From positions 40,435-104,434 of IMG/VR virus record IMGVR_UViG_3300021197_001653: a DNA stretch of 64,000 nt; one strand, written 5' to 3'. Position 1 is the stretch's first letter. The number at the start of each line of letters is the position of its first letter. Made by a program: the position numbers and the translations under genes. Shown here piece after piece: positions 40,289-59,568 of the stretch. The stretch is from a virus. Below the pieces are notes generated by a model that searched no databases, was not told the DNA's origin, and saw only the letters and a list, made by a program, of their open reading frames with translations.

Positions 40289-40903
40289 TTATAGTGTTGT
40301 CCAATCAGTAGTTGTACCAGCAGCGGTTGGACTTGTTATATCCATTCCTGAAGCAGGTAAACTATCATCATCTGCAACAACTCTAATCATTAAATCATTA
40401 GCACCTTCCCTTAATTTAGTAGAACCGTCTTCACTAGCTCGTTCAATAAAGTTAAAATATCTAAGATTTAAATAACCTTTTTTACTTGGATAATCTTTAG
40501 TTCCATAAGTAACAAATACGTTAAATTTGGAATCACCAGCATTATCACCAATTATTTTAAAAAGTATATCGACAATACTTTTTGGAGTCATCCCAGCTGT
40601 ATCAGGGTATTTGTATGTAGGTCCTACTACAGCTCGTGCTATATGTAAAACCCTACTTATTTCCCTTTTTGCAGCTACTTTAACTTGCTCCTCAGTTTGT
40701 CCATCTCTTTTTGTTGGATAATTAAACCAACCTGTTAATAATCCACCATCATTATCTTTTACAATTAATTTATAAGGTGAATTTGTTTCTGGCTCACCAG
40801 GTTTTCTAACATCAACTGATATAGTGACATTTTTTGCTACCCCTGCTGCTCCGTTATTAAAAATTGTAGTTTCCTTGAAATCTTTCCCATTTAAATCAAA
40901 CAT
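40289..40903 (-). CDS. Putative single-stranded DNA-binding protein
   Basis: 204 aa, acidic flexible tail ending DWTTL. Position between the AAA ATPase and primase as in crAss-like replication modules. Confidence 0.55.
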   Translation of the reverse strand: MFDLNGKDFKETTIFNNGAAGVAKNVTISVDVRKPGEPETNSPYKLIVKDNDGGLLTGWFNYPTKRDGQTEEQVKVAAKREISRVLHIARAVVGPTYKYPDTAGMTPKSIVDILFKIIGDNAGDSKFNVFVTYGTKDYPSKKGYLNLRYFNFIERASEDGSTKLREGANDLMIRVVADDDSLPASGMDITSPTAAGTTTDWTTL

Positions 40904-41774: not shown

Positions 41775-42242
41775 TTATGTGGTTATAAATTCAGAGTATC
41801 TTATATTACAATTAACAAAACCTTGACCTTTAAAAGTACGACTAGGTCTAGTTGTAATTATATCTTTAAATCCAAATGAATAAAAGTTTTCACCATGAAA
41901 ATTATCTTTCCTTATGTTTGGGCAATATATAAAACTTAATGATCTATTTTTAGTTTTTAATGTATCTTCCAATTCAATAATTTTAGTAAATATGGTATTT
42001 ATTTTTGTTTCTGGATAATAGAATTTAACTAGTTTAATTATATCATCTAGTGAACGATATCTTCTTGCACCACAATGTCTACCTCCTCTAGTGTATACTG
42101 TTGTATTCTCACCTGTGGTAAATATTGTTTCTTTTATAATCTGTTCAATACTAGATACTTCAATATCTCTAAATTTAATTTTCCTACATTGAGAGTAATA
42201 TTGTTCAACATCCTCTCGTGTTATTACTTCTCTTTTTGTCAT
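41775..42242 (-). CDS. Hypothetical protein, family A (RS..D....P...C..I), paralogue of intron cargo ORFs
   Basis: HCGARRYRSLDDI...YYP...IYCPNIRK resembles 53760-54242 and 51661-52053. Confidence 0.6.
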   Translation of the reverse strand: MTKREVITREDVEQYYSQCRKIKFRDIEVSSIEQIIKETIFTTGENTTVYTRGGRHCGARRYRSLDDIIKLVKFYYPETKINTIFTKIIELEDTLKTKNRSLSFIYCPNIRKDNFHGENFYSFGFKDIITTRPSRTFKGQGFVNCNIRYSEFITT

Positions 42243-50705: not shown

Positions 50706-51653
50706 TTATCTTATTGTATTTACAAAATCATAAACTTGTTTCATATTTACTTCATCTTTTGGTAAAGGTAGCTCTTTAAAGTAATTCACTGCACCATCAA
50801 AATATAATGGGCAGATAGTACCAGCACCGCCTTCTCTACCACCTAAAATTTCTAAGAATCTAATATTATCTTTAAAAAATCTAATATCATAATCTTTGTA
50901 TTCAGGTATTTCATGTCTAAAAGGATTAAATAATCCTAATATAACATCAGCATCTCTCTGGGTAAGTTTACAATCCCCTAATCCATCTAAACTAGGTTTA
51001 AGCTTGTTAGCTTTAAAATTATCTAAACTCTCTTGAGAAGATGCTTGCTGTTGTATTACTACAAGTGAATATTTATATTTGTTACGTAGTCTAATTAAAT
51101 AATCTGACGATAATTTAACAATAGATGCATGTAAACCCATTTGTTTACCATCTATACTCTCCGTGGAGATTAAACTAATATGGTCAATAAAAACCATAAC
51201 ATATTCATCTGGATCATTTGGTTCATAATAATCATCAATCTCTTTTTCAAAGAGCTCACCTGTTTTATTATTTACAAATTCAACTTTCTTAGTATGTTGT
51301 GTTCCATTATTAACCGCATATTCTCTAACAAATTTATATATACCTGTTGGATTTCTAATATCATCAATGAATTCAACTATTTCTTCAATTTTCTCAAAAT
51401 AAGGTTTATATTTCTCAATAACTTCTAATACGTTATCTGGTAATACATTATCTTCCTTGGTACTTCTTAAATCTTTAGGTGCTATTCTTATTCCCTCTTT
51501 TACATAAAGTATATTAGAGAATGCTGATAACATTTTTTGTTCTTTAGACATCTCTAAAGTAAAATAAAATATTTTTAATCTTATGTTTAAGTCGTTATCT
51601 ACGACTTGTTGAATAGTATTATACAGATAAAGCCAATCAGCTATCTGCGTTTT
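50706..51653 (-). CDS. dnaB: Replicative DnaB-like helicase, exon 2 (315 aa, begins at Walker A Lys)
   Basis: Begins KTQIADWL. FTLEMS, FIDHISL, VIQQQ, DCKLTQRDADVILGLF, REGG. Confidence 0.9.
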   Translation of the reverse strand, partial: KTQIADWLYLYNTIQQVVDNDLNIRLKIFYFTLEMSKEQKMLSAFSNILYVKEGIRIAPKDLRSTKEDNVLPDNVLEVIEKYKPYFEKIEEIVEFIDDIRNPTGIYKFVREYAVNNGTQHTKKVEFVNNKTGELFEKEIDDYYEPNDPDEYVMVFIDHISLISTESIDGKQMGLHASIVKLSSDYLIRLRNKYKYSLVVIQQQASSQESLDNFKANKLKPSLDGLGDCKLTQRDADVILGLFNPFRHEIPEYKDYDIRFFKDNIRFLEILGGREGGAGTICPLYFDGAVNYFKELPLPKDEVNMKQVYDFVNTIR

Positions 51654-51660
51654 CAATTTG

Positions 51661-52053
51661 TTACTTATTAAATATAGAATTGTATAGATTTTCTAAATAC
51701 TCTGGTGTATATTTACCATAATTTGAAAATCTAAAGGTGTTTTTATACCTATTAGTTACTCGTTCTTCAGATACACACCAAAATTTATGTTTATGAGTAT
51801 ATTTGAAAAACACTATATTTTTAATATCAGGGCATCTATATGCTCTAAATTGTTGTGATACTAAGCATTCCATTAATAATGCTTCACTCACACCTTTAAA
51901 TCTATATAATTTAAATAAATCTCCAAAAGTTCTTCTTGCATATATTTTATCATCATTTTTAAAAAGTTTAAATTTAAAATAATCTAAAACTACATTTCTA
52001 GGTCTACTTGGGCATTTATTATTTAAGTCCTTTATTAATTCTTCTTTATTCAT
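51661..52053 (-). CDS. Intron cargo ORF (P9.2-type loop), family A hypothetical
   Basis: 130 aa. RRTFGDL...YRCPDIKNIVF. Almost wholly enclosed by the 13-bp stem. Confidence 0.65.
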   Translation of the reverse strand: MNKEELIKDLNNKCPSRPRNVVLDYFKFKLFKNDDKIYARRTFGDLFKLYRFKGVSEALLMECLVSQQFRAYRCPDIKNIVFFKYTHKHKFWCVSEERVTNRYKNTFRFSNYGKYTPEYLENLYNSIFNK

Positions 52054-52127
52054 TTTTTTCTATATTTAATTGGTTCAGTCATTTCTGCTGAACTCTATAA
52101 TTTATAATAAAAAAATATAAAAATTAA

Positions 52128-52769
52128 TTAATCAACACAATTTAATAACCATGTTTTAATAGTATTACCACTGTTGCTATTTATAGCTGTTTCATGAGAG
52201 TCTGTTAACTCTTCTAACCCAGTATCAACAATACTAAAACGATTATGATTTGTATTTGTAGATAACACTGCCATACAACTAGTGTTCTCTTTAATTAATT
52301 CAAAACAAGTTTTAGATATATGTGTTGTTAATTCACGTCTTTCCTCTGCATTTATAGTATTAAACCTTTGACCAAAGTTATAAATAGATGTAGAAAAAGC
52401 ATTTAAATTATATATTTGATTTACACCACAACTAATCTCTGAACCACTTAAAGATAAACTGGGGCTAGCATTATAATTTCTTCTACCAACATTATATGTG
52501 ATATCAAAATCATATGCACGACCTACATCCATATTAATAACAAGCGCTTCTTTAATAGAATCTAATGTTGGATTAACAACAGGTTCTTCTACTACTTCCT
52601 CAACAATTGCTTGTCTAATTTCTTCAAATAATTTCTTTGAATAAGAAGCTATTTTATTCTTATCATTTTCTATATTATACATATCTCTTGTACTCCCTAA
52701 TATAATATAAGGATTACCTTTTGTTAATGCATAATTTTTAGCATTAATACAAGTTACTTGTTTTGCCAT
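52128..52769 (-). CDS. Intron cargo ORF (L9), family B hypothetical
   Basis: 213 aa. N-terminal CI....LTKG..Y SH3-like module, C-terminal SCGVNQIYNL...NSNSGNTIKTW. Confidence 0.65.
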   Translation of the reverse strand: MAKQVTCINAKNYALTKGNPYIILGSTRDMYNIENDKNKIASYSKKLFEEIRQAIVEEVVEEPVVNPTLDSIKEALVINMDVGRAYDFDITYNVGRRNYNASPSLSLSGSEISCGVNQIYNLNAFSTSIYNFGQRFNTINAEERRELTTHISKTCFELIKENTSCMAVLSTNTNHNRFSIVDTGLEELTDSHETAINSNSGNTIKTWLLNCVD

Positions 52770-52828
52770 TTTAATTAATTTTTTAAATTTTTATTGTTTA
52801 TATTTATAGTTCGGACTGTCTCATCAAC

Positions 52829-53086
52829 CTAACTACACATACATGTATTGTCTCCTCCACATTTACATTCATTAGGTTGCTCATTGTCAGTCTCTACACC
52901 GTTTTGTAATTTTTTTAATATTAAATATTTAATATCCTTAAAAGGAGTATCTTTTTCAATATCCTTTTTTACTAGAGATATTAAATAACCAATATCTTTA
53001 TTATCAATTGACGGCACGGGATTGTCTTTAATTTTGTCATTTTTTATGACACTTTTAACTTGCTCACTATTTTTATCGCTAGTCAT
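52829..53086 (-). CDS. ORF reading through the intron catalytic core (coding status uncertain)
   Basis: 85 aa. ATGA overlap with the upstream stop. Spans P5'/P4'/P6/P7/P8 and stops in the P8 3' strand. Confidence 0.35.
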   Translation of the reverse strand: MTSDKNSEQVKSVIKNDKIKDNPVPSIDNKDIGYLISLVKKDIEKDTPFKDIKYLILKKLQNGVETDNEQPNECKCGGDNTCMCS

Positions 53087-53721
53087 TTTATTCTAGGTAT
53101 TAATAAATTTCTTTGTAATTCTGCATATTTTTCAGATTTACTTACCATTAATTTAATAGTACTTATCGTTAACTTATTTTTAGAAACAGGTTTAAATAAA
53201 TTATTTATATAACCATTTGTATTCAATTTGTCAATAAATTGATTCCAGCTTCTATATGTATAAAAATGATTTAGTCTATTATTTACAGGTACAACATCCA
53301 TACTATTACGAATACTTGAACCACCACTTGAATAATGGGCTAATAAAATAGCATTATATGGTTTCACACCATTATCTATCAAATCAACCATTTTAACTAA
53401 TATTTTCTTTAATGTTCTAGTTCTAACATACCTACATAATTTAAAAAAGATTCTTTGATTTTTATTTTTAAATTTAATTTTACTTTCAAATATAAAACTT
53501 TCTTCTTTAATATTATGCAATTGCATTATTTTATCAAATTTCTTAAATAAAGTAATTAATAAAGTACATTCTTCTTTACTACCTGTAAATTTATGAATAT
53601 GGTGATTTTGATAACCATCACTACAATTCATATACATATGTATACTATATACATTACCACTACGCCATTTATTATTACACGATGATGGTATTCTAGTCAT
53701 TTTTGTTAAACTTGTTGCCAT
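53083..53721 (-). CDS. Intron cargo ORF (L5), hypothetical
   Basis: 212 aa between P5 strands UCUUUAA (53733-53739) and UUAAAGA (53025-53031). Confidence 0.65.
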   Translation of the reverse strand: MATSLTKMTRIPSSCNNKWRSGNVYSIHMYMNCSDGYQNHHIHKFTGSKEECTLLITLFKKFDKIMQLHNIKEESFIFESKIKFKNKNQRIFFKLCRYVRTRTLKKILVKMVDLIDNGVKPYNAILLAHYSSGGSSIRNSMDVVPVNNRLNHFYTYRSWNQFIDKLNTNGYINNLFKPVSKNKLTISTIKLMVSKSEKYAELQRNLLIPRIK

Positions 53722-53759
53722 TTTTTATTTTTTTAAAGAGTTTCCCCGTTAGCTAATAT

Positions 53760-54242
53760 TTATAAATTTAATTGATCATTTCGTATATCAATTAATTGAT
53801 TATACGAAATACCATCCACTCCTACTTTCTCACCAAAGTATTTTTTACTATAATTGGTGATGAAATTTTTTCTACAAGGATTATCCTTACTAAACCCACC
53901 TACAACAACAAACTTATTTACTTGGGTACACCATACTAAATAGCATCTATTATCATGATTTAATTCTGCTACTATTCTGATTACTGCGTCAATAGTTGTT
54001 ATTGGAAACCTACTTCTAACGATAGAAGTTAATTCAGATATAGACCTACTTGATGATCTATTACATTGAATATTACCATTCTTGTGATATGTGTTTGGTC
54101 TTTTTTCTAAAAATTGTCTTAAGAAACTTTTTCTTGTCTTTGTTAATGGAATATCTGTTTCATTAACATAAATTATTTTCGTGATAGTTTTCATTCTTAT
54201 TATTAATATTAACCTCCAAAAATATCTAATAACTTTTTTCAT
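53760..54242 (-). CDS. Intron cargo ORF (between P2 and P3), family A hypothetical
   Basis: 160 aa. QCNRSSSRSISEL...SRFP...VWCTQVNK. Confidence 0.65.
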   Translation of the reverse strand: MKKVIRYFWRLILIIRMKTITKIIYVNETDIPLTKTRKSFLRQFLEKRPNTYHKNGNIQCNRSSSRSISELTSIVRSRFPITTIDAVIRIVAELNHDNRCYLVWCTQVNKFVVVGGFSKDNPCRKNFITNYSKKYFGEKVGVDGISYNQLIDIRNDQLNL

Positions 54243-54271
54243 GTTATTTATTTAAAAGTTAGATTGTTTAT

Positions 54272-55177
54272 TTATTTTTTTATTGATGCATATGCTTCTG
54301 GCATCACACTTCTTTCTGCAAAATTTATAAATGGTTCTACTGCTTCCGATTTTGTTTTAGATAAATCAGCTATAGCTTCTTCCATTAATCTTCCTTTTTT
54401 TTCTTCTTTGGAATTCTGAGTTTTAAGATTATTTTCTTTTGATACTTCTTTTTCTATTTTTTTTTCATTTAATACATGTTCTCCAGGATTAAAATGATAT
54501 ACATTTATTGTATTTTTGGAATTATTATTAACATACGAGTATTGCAATTGAAATCCTAATCTTTCAACAAAATCTTTTGCGGTACTTTGGTTATCTGTAA
54601 TATGTGCAATTTTTGCAGCTCTATCAACATTTAAATGATCAAAGATAATTTTATAATCACTTATTATTAAATTTTTATATCTACAATATACACCACTACT
54701 ATTCTCAAAGTTAAATAATATTTGACAACCACAACAATCTGAATGTGGTGTTTGTTTAAATAAACTTATACCCGGTCCATTATTTTTAAATATTGATAGT
54801 TTACCATTAGAATCTTTTATACGAACAAATGAGGTATCACTAATACTTATTTGACTACTTCGTGAATTTGAATTTGTTACTTTTAAATGTCTTTGATACC
54901 ACGGTTCATTTAATACCATATCATTTTCATTTATTATTCTATTTATTATAACGCCATCAGATAGTTTTAAACCTTCTCGTATATGAAATGCCCATGAATA
55001 TGTATATAATTCAGTTATAGGATGTTTAGAATTAGCAGGCCGACTACCTTTTTTATTATTTTGAAAAAAATAATATAGATTATTTAATTTAATTACATGA
55101 CCTATTGTATATGTGCCATTAATACTTCCTTCTACATGTATCTGATCATTATCTGATAATTTTTCTAGTTCTTTCAT
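54272..55177 (-). CDS. Intron cargo ORF (between P2 and P3), family B hypothetical with GNAT-like C-terminal motif
   Basis: 301 aa. YFFQN..GS...Y.YSW N-terminal module, DCCGCQILFNF, NQ..AKDFVERLGF, NNNSKNTINVY. Confidence 0.65.
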   Translation of the reverse strand: MKELEKLSDNDQIHVEGSINGTYTIGHVIKLNNLYYFFQNNKKGSRPANSKHPITELYTYSWAFHIREGLKLSDGVIINRIINENDMVLNEPWYQRHLKVTNSNSRSSQISISDTSFVRIKDSNGKLSIFKNNGPGISLFKQTPHSDCCGCQILFNFENSSGVYCRYKNLIISDYKIIFDHLNVDRAAKIAHITDNQSTAKDFVERLGFQLQYSYVNNNSKNTINVYHFNPGEHVLNEKKIEKEVSKENNLKTQNSKEEKKGRLMEEAIADLSKTKSEAVEPFINFAERSVMPEAYASIKK

Positions 55178-55227
55178 TTTTTATAATCTTTTTTCCATAT
55201 ATATTACTATATACAGGGGCAAAATCT

Positions 55228-55398
55228 ACCCACTTTACTATTCGCTGTTATAAGATAATATTTACCTTTTTCTATACCAGGTAATTCATTTTCAAATCTT
55301 GGTAAACCCCATGGTATACAATTTACCTTTCCAGATAGAATTCTATTTTTTCTATCTACTAAATTTTCATAAACTCTACTATATAATGTCTTTTTCAT
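55228..55398 (-). CDS. dnaB: Replicative DnaB-like helicase, exon 1 (57 aa, ends at Walker A Gly)
   Basis: MKKTLYSRV...NCIPWGLPRFE..LPGIEKGKYYLITANSKVG. The unspliced frame stops 6 codons into the intron. Confidence 0.9.
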
Positions 55399-55567
55399 AT
55401 ATTTTTTCATACAATATTTTAAGATATTCATTTTGTGCATGAATATCATATTTTCCTTTATTGTTAATAAATTGTGCTTTATTAACTTTTCTTCTACTTA
55501 ACGACGGTATAACTATATATTTTTCAGTATGATATACCGTTTTTATAAATTCTTCTAATGTTAACAT
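55379..55567 (-). CDS. Hypothetical protein
   Basis: 62-aa ORF coupled between the 55.6-kb gene and dnaB. Confidence 0.5.
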   Translation of the reverse strand: MLTLEEFIKTVYHTEKYIVIPSLSRRKVNKAQFINNKGKYDIHAQNEYLKILYEKIYEKDII

Positions 55568-59479: not shown

Positions 59480-59494
59480 TGTTTATTTTTTTAG

Positions 59495-59568
59495 TGGACC
59501 CAGAGAGATTTGAACTCCCGACCCTCTGATTATGAGTCAGATGCTCTAACCAACTGAGCTATGGGTCC
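59495..59568 (-). tRNA. tRNA with CAU anticodon (Ile2-like; elongator Met alternative); CCA not encoded
   Basis: GGACCCA-TAGCTCAGTTGGTTAGAGCA-TCTGA-CTCATAA-TCAGA-GGGTC-GGGAG-TTCAAAT-CTCTC-TGGGTCC-A forms a complete cloverleaf. Confidence 0.93.

Follow-up and report, generated by a model that had tools for sequence, protein, structure and literature searches.

The gene for the DnaB-like replicative helicase of a marine crAss-like phage was found to be split by a group I intron that holds six open reading frames (ORFs), none of them recognisable as a homing endonuclease. The phage copy, called W here, was studied in a window of 64,000 nt, namely positions 40,435 to 104,434 of the 104,434-bp IMG/VR virus record IMGVR_UViG_3300021197_001653. 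The reading that we favour, with a probability of about 60% and on the strength of sequence comparison, is that W carries a nuclease-less group I intron whose loops form a modular landing site, a set of exchangeable slots for accessory genes. The identity of the intron, the structure of its core, the modularity of its cargo and the folds of two cargo families rest on the analysis given below. Related loci were labelled with L-numbers, among which L001 is NC_021806, the genome of Cellulophaga phage phi14:2 (Crassvirales, Steigviridae) and the nearest cultured relative of W, and L005 is an IMG/VR contig.

The helicase gene is split within its Walker A motif

In W all genes from about 23 kb of the window onward are on the minus strand, including the helicase gene. 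The ORF at 51656..50706 showed similarity to DnaB-like helicases beginning only at the second half of the Walker A motif, and the first part of the gene was located upstream of it. The two exons are as follows.

55228..55398, minus strand: helicase exon 1, located by tblastn comparison with g024 of phi14:2 and with the L005 and cr108_1 helicases, which are uninterrupted
50706..51653, minus strand: helicase exon 2, PHROG 19 DnaB-like helicase

Exon 1 ends with ANSKVG (nucleotides GTGGGT), its last base being U55228; its probable start is the ATG at 55398, which gives 57 codons, with alternative in-frame ATGs at 55410 and 55449. Exon 2 begins with AAAACG and the residues KTQIADW, and was 42-55% identical to annotated crAss-like replicative helicases. 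The 3574-nt insert (55227..51654, minus strand) is thus placed between the G and K codons of the Walker A GKT, and the predicted joining of the exons rebuilds the reading ANSKVG-KT. In L005 (75% amino acid identity) and in cr108_1 the helicase was uninterrupted, and both parts were contiguous exactly at the split point of W. The exons were kept up to the junction in every lineage, with 68-81% identity and zero frameshifts.

Four other accounts of the split gene were rejected. A group II intron was ruled out by the start of the insert, which is not GUGYG, and an intein by the many stops, the separate ORFs and the absence of Cys, Ser or Thr at +1. Independent translation of exon 2 was ruled out by the absence of a start codon at the junction in phi14:2 and L007, and stop-codon recoding by the TAA that follows.

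The same gene is recorded differently in the RefSeq entry of phi14:2 (NC_021806). Exon 1 appears there as g024, a "hypothetical protein" (L001:3217-3411), the helicase is not annotated as joined, and g029 (L001:6001-6942) is called as a helicase of 280 amino acids from an internal ATG. The record annotates its PolB intron but not the 2616-nt intron that holds g025-g028.

Two further features of exon 2 were observed. It was split again at other positions in L014 (10109-12157), L033 and L036, which points to additional introns or inteins in the helicase gene. Directly 3' of the splice site, at 51645-51620 of the window (minus strand), an imperfect palindrome or hairpin is formed by the first exon 2 codons QI[A/T]DWL[F/Y], for example CAAATAAC-TGATTG-GTTATTTG. 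It lies at the same place in relatives, with an apparent compensatory change in L008 and a weaker version in the intron-less L005, and may represent either an extended exon structure or the target of a nuclease.

The insert contains the helices of a group I intron core

From its sequence the 3574-nt insert is identified as a group I intron, with splicing itself predicted. For the comparison of its helices, an R-box pattern search of IMG/VR yielded 31 stretches, representing 29 new loci, which together with the loci from protein searches gave about 24 non-redundant intron copies. The parts of the ribozyme in W are listed here in 5' to 3' order.

55195..55227, minus strand: intron 5' end (P1, P10, P2), conserved in 16/16 loci
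54413..54423, minus strand: P3 5' strand region AAACUCAGAAU, with CUCA at 54420-54417, then a small hairpin
53733..53755, minus strand: P box UAGCUAACGGGGAAACUCUUUAA, with the P4 5' strand ACGGGG at 53749-53744, then the P5 5' strand
52804..53028, minus strand: 3' half of the ribozyme core (Q, R, P3', P8, S and the P9 5' strand)
52073..52103, minus strand: P9 3' strand AAAUUAUAGA and P9.1 hairpin GUUCAGCAGAAAUGACUGAAC, between the cargo ORFs c213 and c130
51654..51665, minus strand: intron 3' end AGUAACAAAUUG, with omega-G at 51654

Both splice sites were defined by possible pairings. The sequence UUUUGCCC just inside the 5' end could pair with GGGU of exon 1 to form P1 and with AAAA of exon 2 to form P10. 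In P1, GCCC (55220-55217) pairs with GGGU and leaves a U.G pair at the splice site, the variant in L007 being UUGGU/GCCAA; in P10, the guide UUUU (55224-55221) can pair with AAAA. P2, a hairpin of 9 bp (55216-55195) capped by GUAA, was present in 16/16 loci with many compensatory changes. At the other end, the motif AGUAACAAAUUG was kept in most relatives, and G was terminal in every copy read.

The core helices were maintained by covariation. In P3, CUCA pairs with UGAG (52883-52880), and 96% of the cells were paired in 20 loci, with two covarying positions (CG/UA at one, AU/CG/UG/UA at the other). P4, whose 5' strand ACGGGG lies in the P box upstream of the cargo ORF c212, was paired in 24/24 loci and had the compensatory variants ACGAGG/UCUCGU and ACGGUG/UACCGU. 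The Q box, AAUCCCGUGCC (53023-53013), contains UCCCGU, and the R box is GGUGUAGAGACUG (52900-52888). P7 was 100% paired, its position 5 being G-C in 10 loci and A-U in 14 without a single mismatch, and P8 (52879-52873 with 52831-52825) was 99% paired, with six pair types at position 1. The S box, GAGACAGUCC (52822-52813), is followed by the P9 5' strand near 52809-52804; Q, R, P8 and S all lie within and just 3' of an 85-amino-acid ORF. The loop of P9.1, CAGAAAUGA, was conserved while its stems covaried (13 loci), and P5, P9 and P9.1 were checked by reading the aligned strands. A 13-bp stem (52070-52058 with 51679-51667), which encloses c130, was read from the sequence. When the partners were shuffled, 0 of 500 shuffles matched the observed pairing of P3, P4, P7 and P8.

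The Rfam model Intron_gpI (RF00028), with a gathering threshold of 50 bits, gave 45 bits (E 1e-10, 5'-truncated) and 30.9 bits (E 4.8e-6) on compact members of this intron type. Rfam scans of the whole window and of about 57 kb of loci gave zero matches to it. This null result was a filter effect, since an intron from a relative scored 97.5 bits when 266 nt were scanned alone and was missed by cmscan with an E-value threshold in the ~57 kb, which comprised loci L001, L004, L008 and L013. Negative Rfam results on long AT-rich stretches are not to be trusted.

Six ORFs occupy the loops of the ribozyme

The earlier note on this DNA had counted five cargo proteins, of 301, 160, 212, 213 and 130 amino acids. 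All five were recovered on the minus strand, and a sixth ORF of 85 amino acids, left out of that count, was added to them. Their positions relative to the ribozyme are listed below.

54272..55177, minus strand: c301 (family F8), placed between P2 and P3, with a C-terminal tail that reads through the P3 5' strand
53760..54242, minus strand: c160 (family F3), looped out of a hairpin that lies just 5' of P4
53083..53721, minus strand: c212 (family F7), in the P5 loop (L5)
52829..53086, minus strand: c85 (family F0), 85 amino acids, running through P5', P4', P6, L6, the P7 5' strand, P3' and P8
52128..52769, minus strand: c213 (family F2), in the P9 loop (L9)
51661..52053, minus strand: c130 (family F6), in the last loop, closed by the 13-bp stem

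The A-rich leaders that the earlier note had described were confirmed by counting: the fraction of A in the 20 nt upstream of the cargo ORFs was 0.50-0.65, compared with 0.55 in 39 other genes and 0.41 at all ATGs. By reading, no Bacteroidetes-type TAnnTTTG box was found in the short intron spacers of W, and such boxes were present at the GIY-YIG genes of relatives. Within the intron, the coding strand showed no terminator-like hairpin, and sites resembling sigma-70 promoters were at chance level. Because the leaders are A-rich and the ORFs come without a promoter or terminator of their own, translation of the cargo from the pre-mRNA or the excised intron would probably be the simplest reading.

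Across the core-crossing ORF c85, the distance from Q to R was a multiple of three in 25/25 long versions with 14 distinct lengths, which indicated that this ORF is kept open by selection. The c85 protein was conserved only in the RNA-constrained blocks KDNPVPS and NGVETxxEQP.

In L018 (883-1548) an N-terminal GNAT domain (Pfam Acetyltransf_1, 2e-6) was fused to the core-crossing ORF; L5 of this intron type thus also harbours a genuine acetyltransferase.

No homing endonuclease was recognised among the cargo

The absence of homing-endonuclease motifs, first noticed from the letters alone, held up in family searches: 0 of the 6 ORFs matched a nuclease family (LAGLIDADG, GIY-YIG, HNH, His-Cys box, PD-(D/E)xK or EDxHD) in Pfam (E<=0.01), PHROGs, NCBIfam or PADLOC, and two families were also checked at the level of the fold. 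The same Pfam scan recognised a LAGLIDADG_2 ORF (1.4e-18) and a GIY-YIG+NUMOD1 ORF (4e-10) in the introns of relatives, and was therefore capable of detecting such families.

The c212 family, with 59 clusters in the representative library, received no name from Pfam, the PDB or its sources, and no nuclease family was found by profile match among 39 c212 relatives. As a LAGLIDADG enzyme c212 was unsupported by hhalign against the LAGLIDADG ORFs of relatives (0.1%), by Pfam at E<=10 and by the PDB profile searches.

The structural comparison proposed in the earlier note was made with AlphaFold (AF2) models, Foldseek and VIA. It covered c213 and c130, whose models matched SH3/GNAT and, weakly, winged-helix chains, respectively, and not nucleases; the Atlas models of c212 and c301 were poor, with predicted local distance difference test (pLDDT) values of 0.46 and 0.37.

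The fold of c213 was the better defined of the two. Its AF2 model had a pLDDT of 92.6, and 24 homologues were collected, none of them named. Residues 1-55 were SH3-like, with a VIA Z of about 7 to SH3 domains, and residues 67-213 aligned with GNATs over 106-120 residues (VIA Z 7.0-8.6, root mean square deviation 2.6-3.7). About four fifths of the top 50 chains were GNATs, most of the others being SH3 domains that matched the N-terminal domain, and the Foldseek E values were 1e-3 to 1e-2. By its model c213 is an SH3-like N-domain followed by a GNAT-like C-domain; since the GNAT Z values are middling, it is the fold only that they establish. No Pfam Acetyltransf match was obtained for c213. At the place of the acetyl-CoA motif Q/R-x-x-G-x-G/A, the family consensus is SCGIxEIxGIN and W has SCGVNQIYNLN, and the family has an invariant Cys (Cys114). 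The C-terminal NPNSGN.I motif of c213 was shared by c301 (hhalign 50%, E 1.6e-4), which had homologues in L004 and L041 and GNAT clusters among its Atlas structure rows at low TM. It is probable that c301 shares the GNAT-like module of c213.

The proteins c130 and c160 belong to one superfamily as paralogues (hhalign 82%, E 1e-5), with 17 homologues of c130, none of them named, and seven of c160. The top VIA rows of c130 were mostly winged-helix or related DNA-binding domains, with Foldseek E>=0.056, and the model weakly suggests a winged-helix-like fold for both. PDB profile searches with the c213 and c160 families returned chance rows only. A free-standing paralogue of the c160 family was found outside the intron in W, at 41775-42242 (minus strand), by profile search (E 6e-13), and no cargo paralogue within the window was found by blastp. 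Just upstream of exon 1, a small ORF (55379-55567) had a weak match to the c130 profile (1e-4).

The cargo varies among relatives and changes slots

The same intron was found at the same site in 16 relatives, with lengths of 1.2-3.8 kb and differing gene sets. The slots of several families shifted between copies: F3 (c160-like) genes were placed before P4 or at the 3' end, F6 and F9 genes in L9 or the last loop, and F7 genes before P4 or in L5. The smallest copy (L025, 1157 nt) contained the core ORF and one F3 gene only, and a LAGLIDADG gene was carried in this intron only in L033 and L036. In L031, genes like c160 and c213 were located upstream of an uninterrupted helicase.

In L004 (3227-4433), L007 (3904-4952) and L008 (4262-4794), another group I intron, of textbook type, was found 9 nt upstream of this one. 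It scored the 97.5 bits mentioned above with Rfam Intron_gpI in L008, and had a GIY-YIG+NUMOD1 gene in L004 and L007. The two introns are separated by a 9-nt micro-exon that encodes K-V/I-G and reads AAAGTGGGT, AAAGTTGGT or AAAATTGGT.

The same intron type with identical P, Q, R and S boxes was also observed in another gene, upstream of the replisome-organizer gene, at L020:10173-11160 and L038:7769-9270. This other host gene is possibly a DNA polymerase. The helicase of L020 was uninterrupted.

A modular landing site is the favoured reading

The earlier note had offered a domesticated, neutral landing site for accessory genes as one of two possibilities, the other being a new class of homing nuclease or maturase. 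The landing site itself was strongly supported by the variable cargo of 16 relatives, the shifts between slots, the free-standing paralogues and the non-nuclease folds of two families; "neutral" and "domesticated" go beyond what these data show.

For the intron to work as a landing site, we infer splicing, translation, an accessory function and a route of mobility in the following way. The catalytic core is intact but cut into about seven pieces, which the long-range helices P3, P4, P5, P7, P9 and the terminal 13-bp stem gather, so that each cargo gene is looped out at the periphery, and splicing at U55228/G51654 would restore ANSKVG-KT. The loops would serve as slots that gain, lose and exchange small accessory genes of clade-specific kinds. 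Inheritance of the intron would be mostly vertical. It may spread by co-conversion, in which an allele without the intron is cut by the nuclease of a related phage and the intron is copied along during repair. The candidates for this nuclease are the GIY-YIG enzyme encoded in the intron 9 nt upstream and the product of the LAGLIDADG gene found in some copies. The presence in relatives of this LAGLIDADG gene and of the GIY-YIG intron 9 nt away would provide a conventional route of mobility without a nuclease in W.

Several points weigh against this reading. The core fragment of W scored just 9.1 bits (E 8.3) for Intron_gpI, a low score that is attributed to the 5' half lying 0.7-1.5 kb away. 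A P3 of only 4 bp and the two hairpins that stand between P3 and P4 are unusual features in a group I intron. Ribosomes on the cargo ORFs, above all on the core-crossing c85, should be expected to disturb the folding of the ribozyme. The winged-helix matches of the c130 AF2 model (pLDDT 86) were weak, with VIA Z of 4.0-4.9, and an Atlas feature search gave a weak language-model lead from c212 to LAGLIDADG clusters (0.82-0.83, where Atlas scores below 0.9 are often due to chance). Co-conversion by the nuclease of a neighbour may account for the spread, as a proposal only, and W has no neighbour intron.

Two bolder possibilities, taken together, are conceivable but doubtful. Either the loops would be a dedicated platform for cassette exchange, with translation of the cargo and the core ORF competing with ribozyme folding and with cargo and helicase as timed alternative outcomes of one transcript, or the c212 or winged-helix family would be a new class of homing nuclease.

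The latter idea leads to the alternative that survives best, namely a conventional mobile intron in which one unassigned ORF, c212 in the first place and c160 or c130 after it, is a homing endonuclease of a new family and the rest are extra cargo. The presence of the intron is polymorphic among close relatives, its site in the P-loop is a classic homing target, and its occurrence in other genes (L020, L038) implies that something moves it. Genes of the c212 family, with its 59 clusters, were inside this intron in all four loci with visible context, and the Atlas lead to LAGLIDADG clusters was given above; c160 and c130 represent the commonest variable cargo, in which an Arg and a Cys are invariant and a Ser, an Asp and a Leu nearly so. 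However, no nuclease motif or profile match appeared at any threshold tried, the hhalign comparison of c212 pointed the other way, and no cargo family was universal, c212 being present in 4/16 copies and c160/c130 in about 11/16. Moreover, the winged-helix family has free-standing paralogues, and a winged helix in 130 amino acids leaves scant room for a catalytic domain. We therefore regard a new nuclease in W as unlikely.

It is still less probable that the core ORF of the c85 family is a maturase or a coupler of translation and splicing that aids the folding of the fragmented ribozyme, which would explain why loop insertions of such size are tolerated. The c85 family was the only ORF common to nearly all copies (26 ORFs in the clustering); its frame, which spans P4', P6, P7 and P8, was kept in 25/25 versions despite 14 L6 lengths, and its C-terminal tails were often Cys-rich. 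Outside the two RNA-constrained blocks, however, c85 was hypervariable in length and residues, unlike a conserved RNA-binding protein, while the compact copies L007 and L020 had no c85, and no fold or family was obtained for it.

That splicing has been lost, with the helicase gene a relic whose function is supplied otherwise and the ORFs an accessory island between gene fragments, would fit a very long intron with a fragmented core, a W core that alone falls below the Rfam threshold and splicing that is predicted only, but is highly improbable given that both exons are conserved to the junction in every lineage, that all core helices are intact in W and maintained by compensatory changes across lineages, and that in phi14:2 and L007 a start codon is absent from exon 2 at the junction, with in-frame stops just upstream.

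Comparison with known systems

The usual description of a group I intron in a phage is that of a ribozyme with at most one homing-endonuclease gene, and those with a single such gene in a loop include T4 td with I-TevI, nrdB and sunY, and the introns of SPO1 and Twort. Like these, the intron of W is a group I ribozyme at a conserved site of a DNA-metabolism gene, with ORFs looped out from peripheral helices, a 5' exon that ends in U, an intron that ends in G and a stop soon after the 5' splice site. In contrast, W has six ORFs, each in a different loop, where those introns have one, and a recognisable nuclease is absent from the six; its intron is 3.6 kb long compared with about 0.25-1.1 kb, with the core in about seven pieces, one ORF running through most of the core and two hairpins between P3 and P4.

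Group I introns have been reported in core replication and structural genes of crAss-like phages (Yutin et al. 2021, PMC7886860). They were found via signature domains of endonucleases, for the most part in the Delta and Zeta groups, and the alpha-gamma group was said to be without such insertions. The intron of W belongs to the same virus order, but has no endonuclease domain and is present in the phi14:2 lineage (Steigviridae). No published description of this intron was found in the literature searches made.

Free-standing endonuclease genes can mobilise adjoining DNA or endonuclease-less introns, as in intronless homing of T4 and in "collaborative homing" of the cyanophage psbA intron. Similarly, a nuclease-less intron could here be co-converted after a nearby cut, a GIY-YIG gene being 9 nt away in L004 and L007. 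W itself has no GIY-YIG intron, so that co-infection with a relative would be needed.

Hypervariable islands of accessory genes ("morons", plastic regions) also occur in phage genomes. The cargo of W resembles them in its small, fast-evolving and clade-restricted genes, its patchy distribution and its free-standing paralogues, and differs in that the island is inside a ribozyme within an essential gene, where the slots are RNA loops.

Taken as a lineage, marine crAss-like phages including the cultured phi14:2 keep an intron of 1.2-3.8 kb in the helicase P-loop that houses as many as six non-nuclease genes, each in its own RNA loop, in sets that are reshuffled between relatives. If it splices, a group I core tolerates insertions at no fewer than six places at once, and introns can be safe harbours for accessory genes. 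In that case such elements are also missed by intron surveys based on endonuclease domains and by the current RefSeq annotation of phi14:2. Both phi14:2 and its host, Cellulophaga baltica, can be cultured, which opens splicing, cargo translation and homing to direct tests.

Elsewhere in the replication module of W, a tRNA-Met (CAU) gene was detected at 59494-59568 of the window (minus strand) by ARAGORN and with 75 bits by Rfam.

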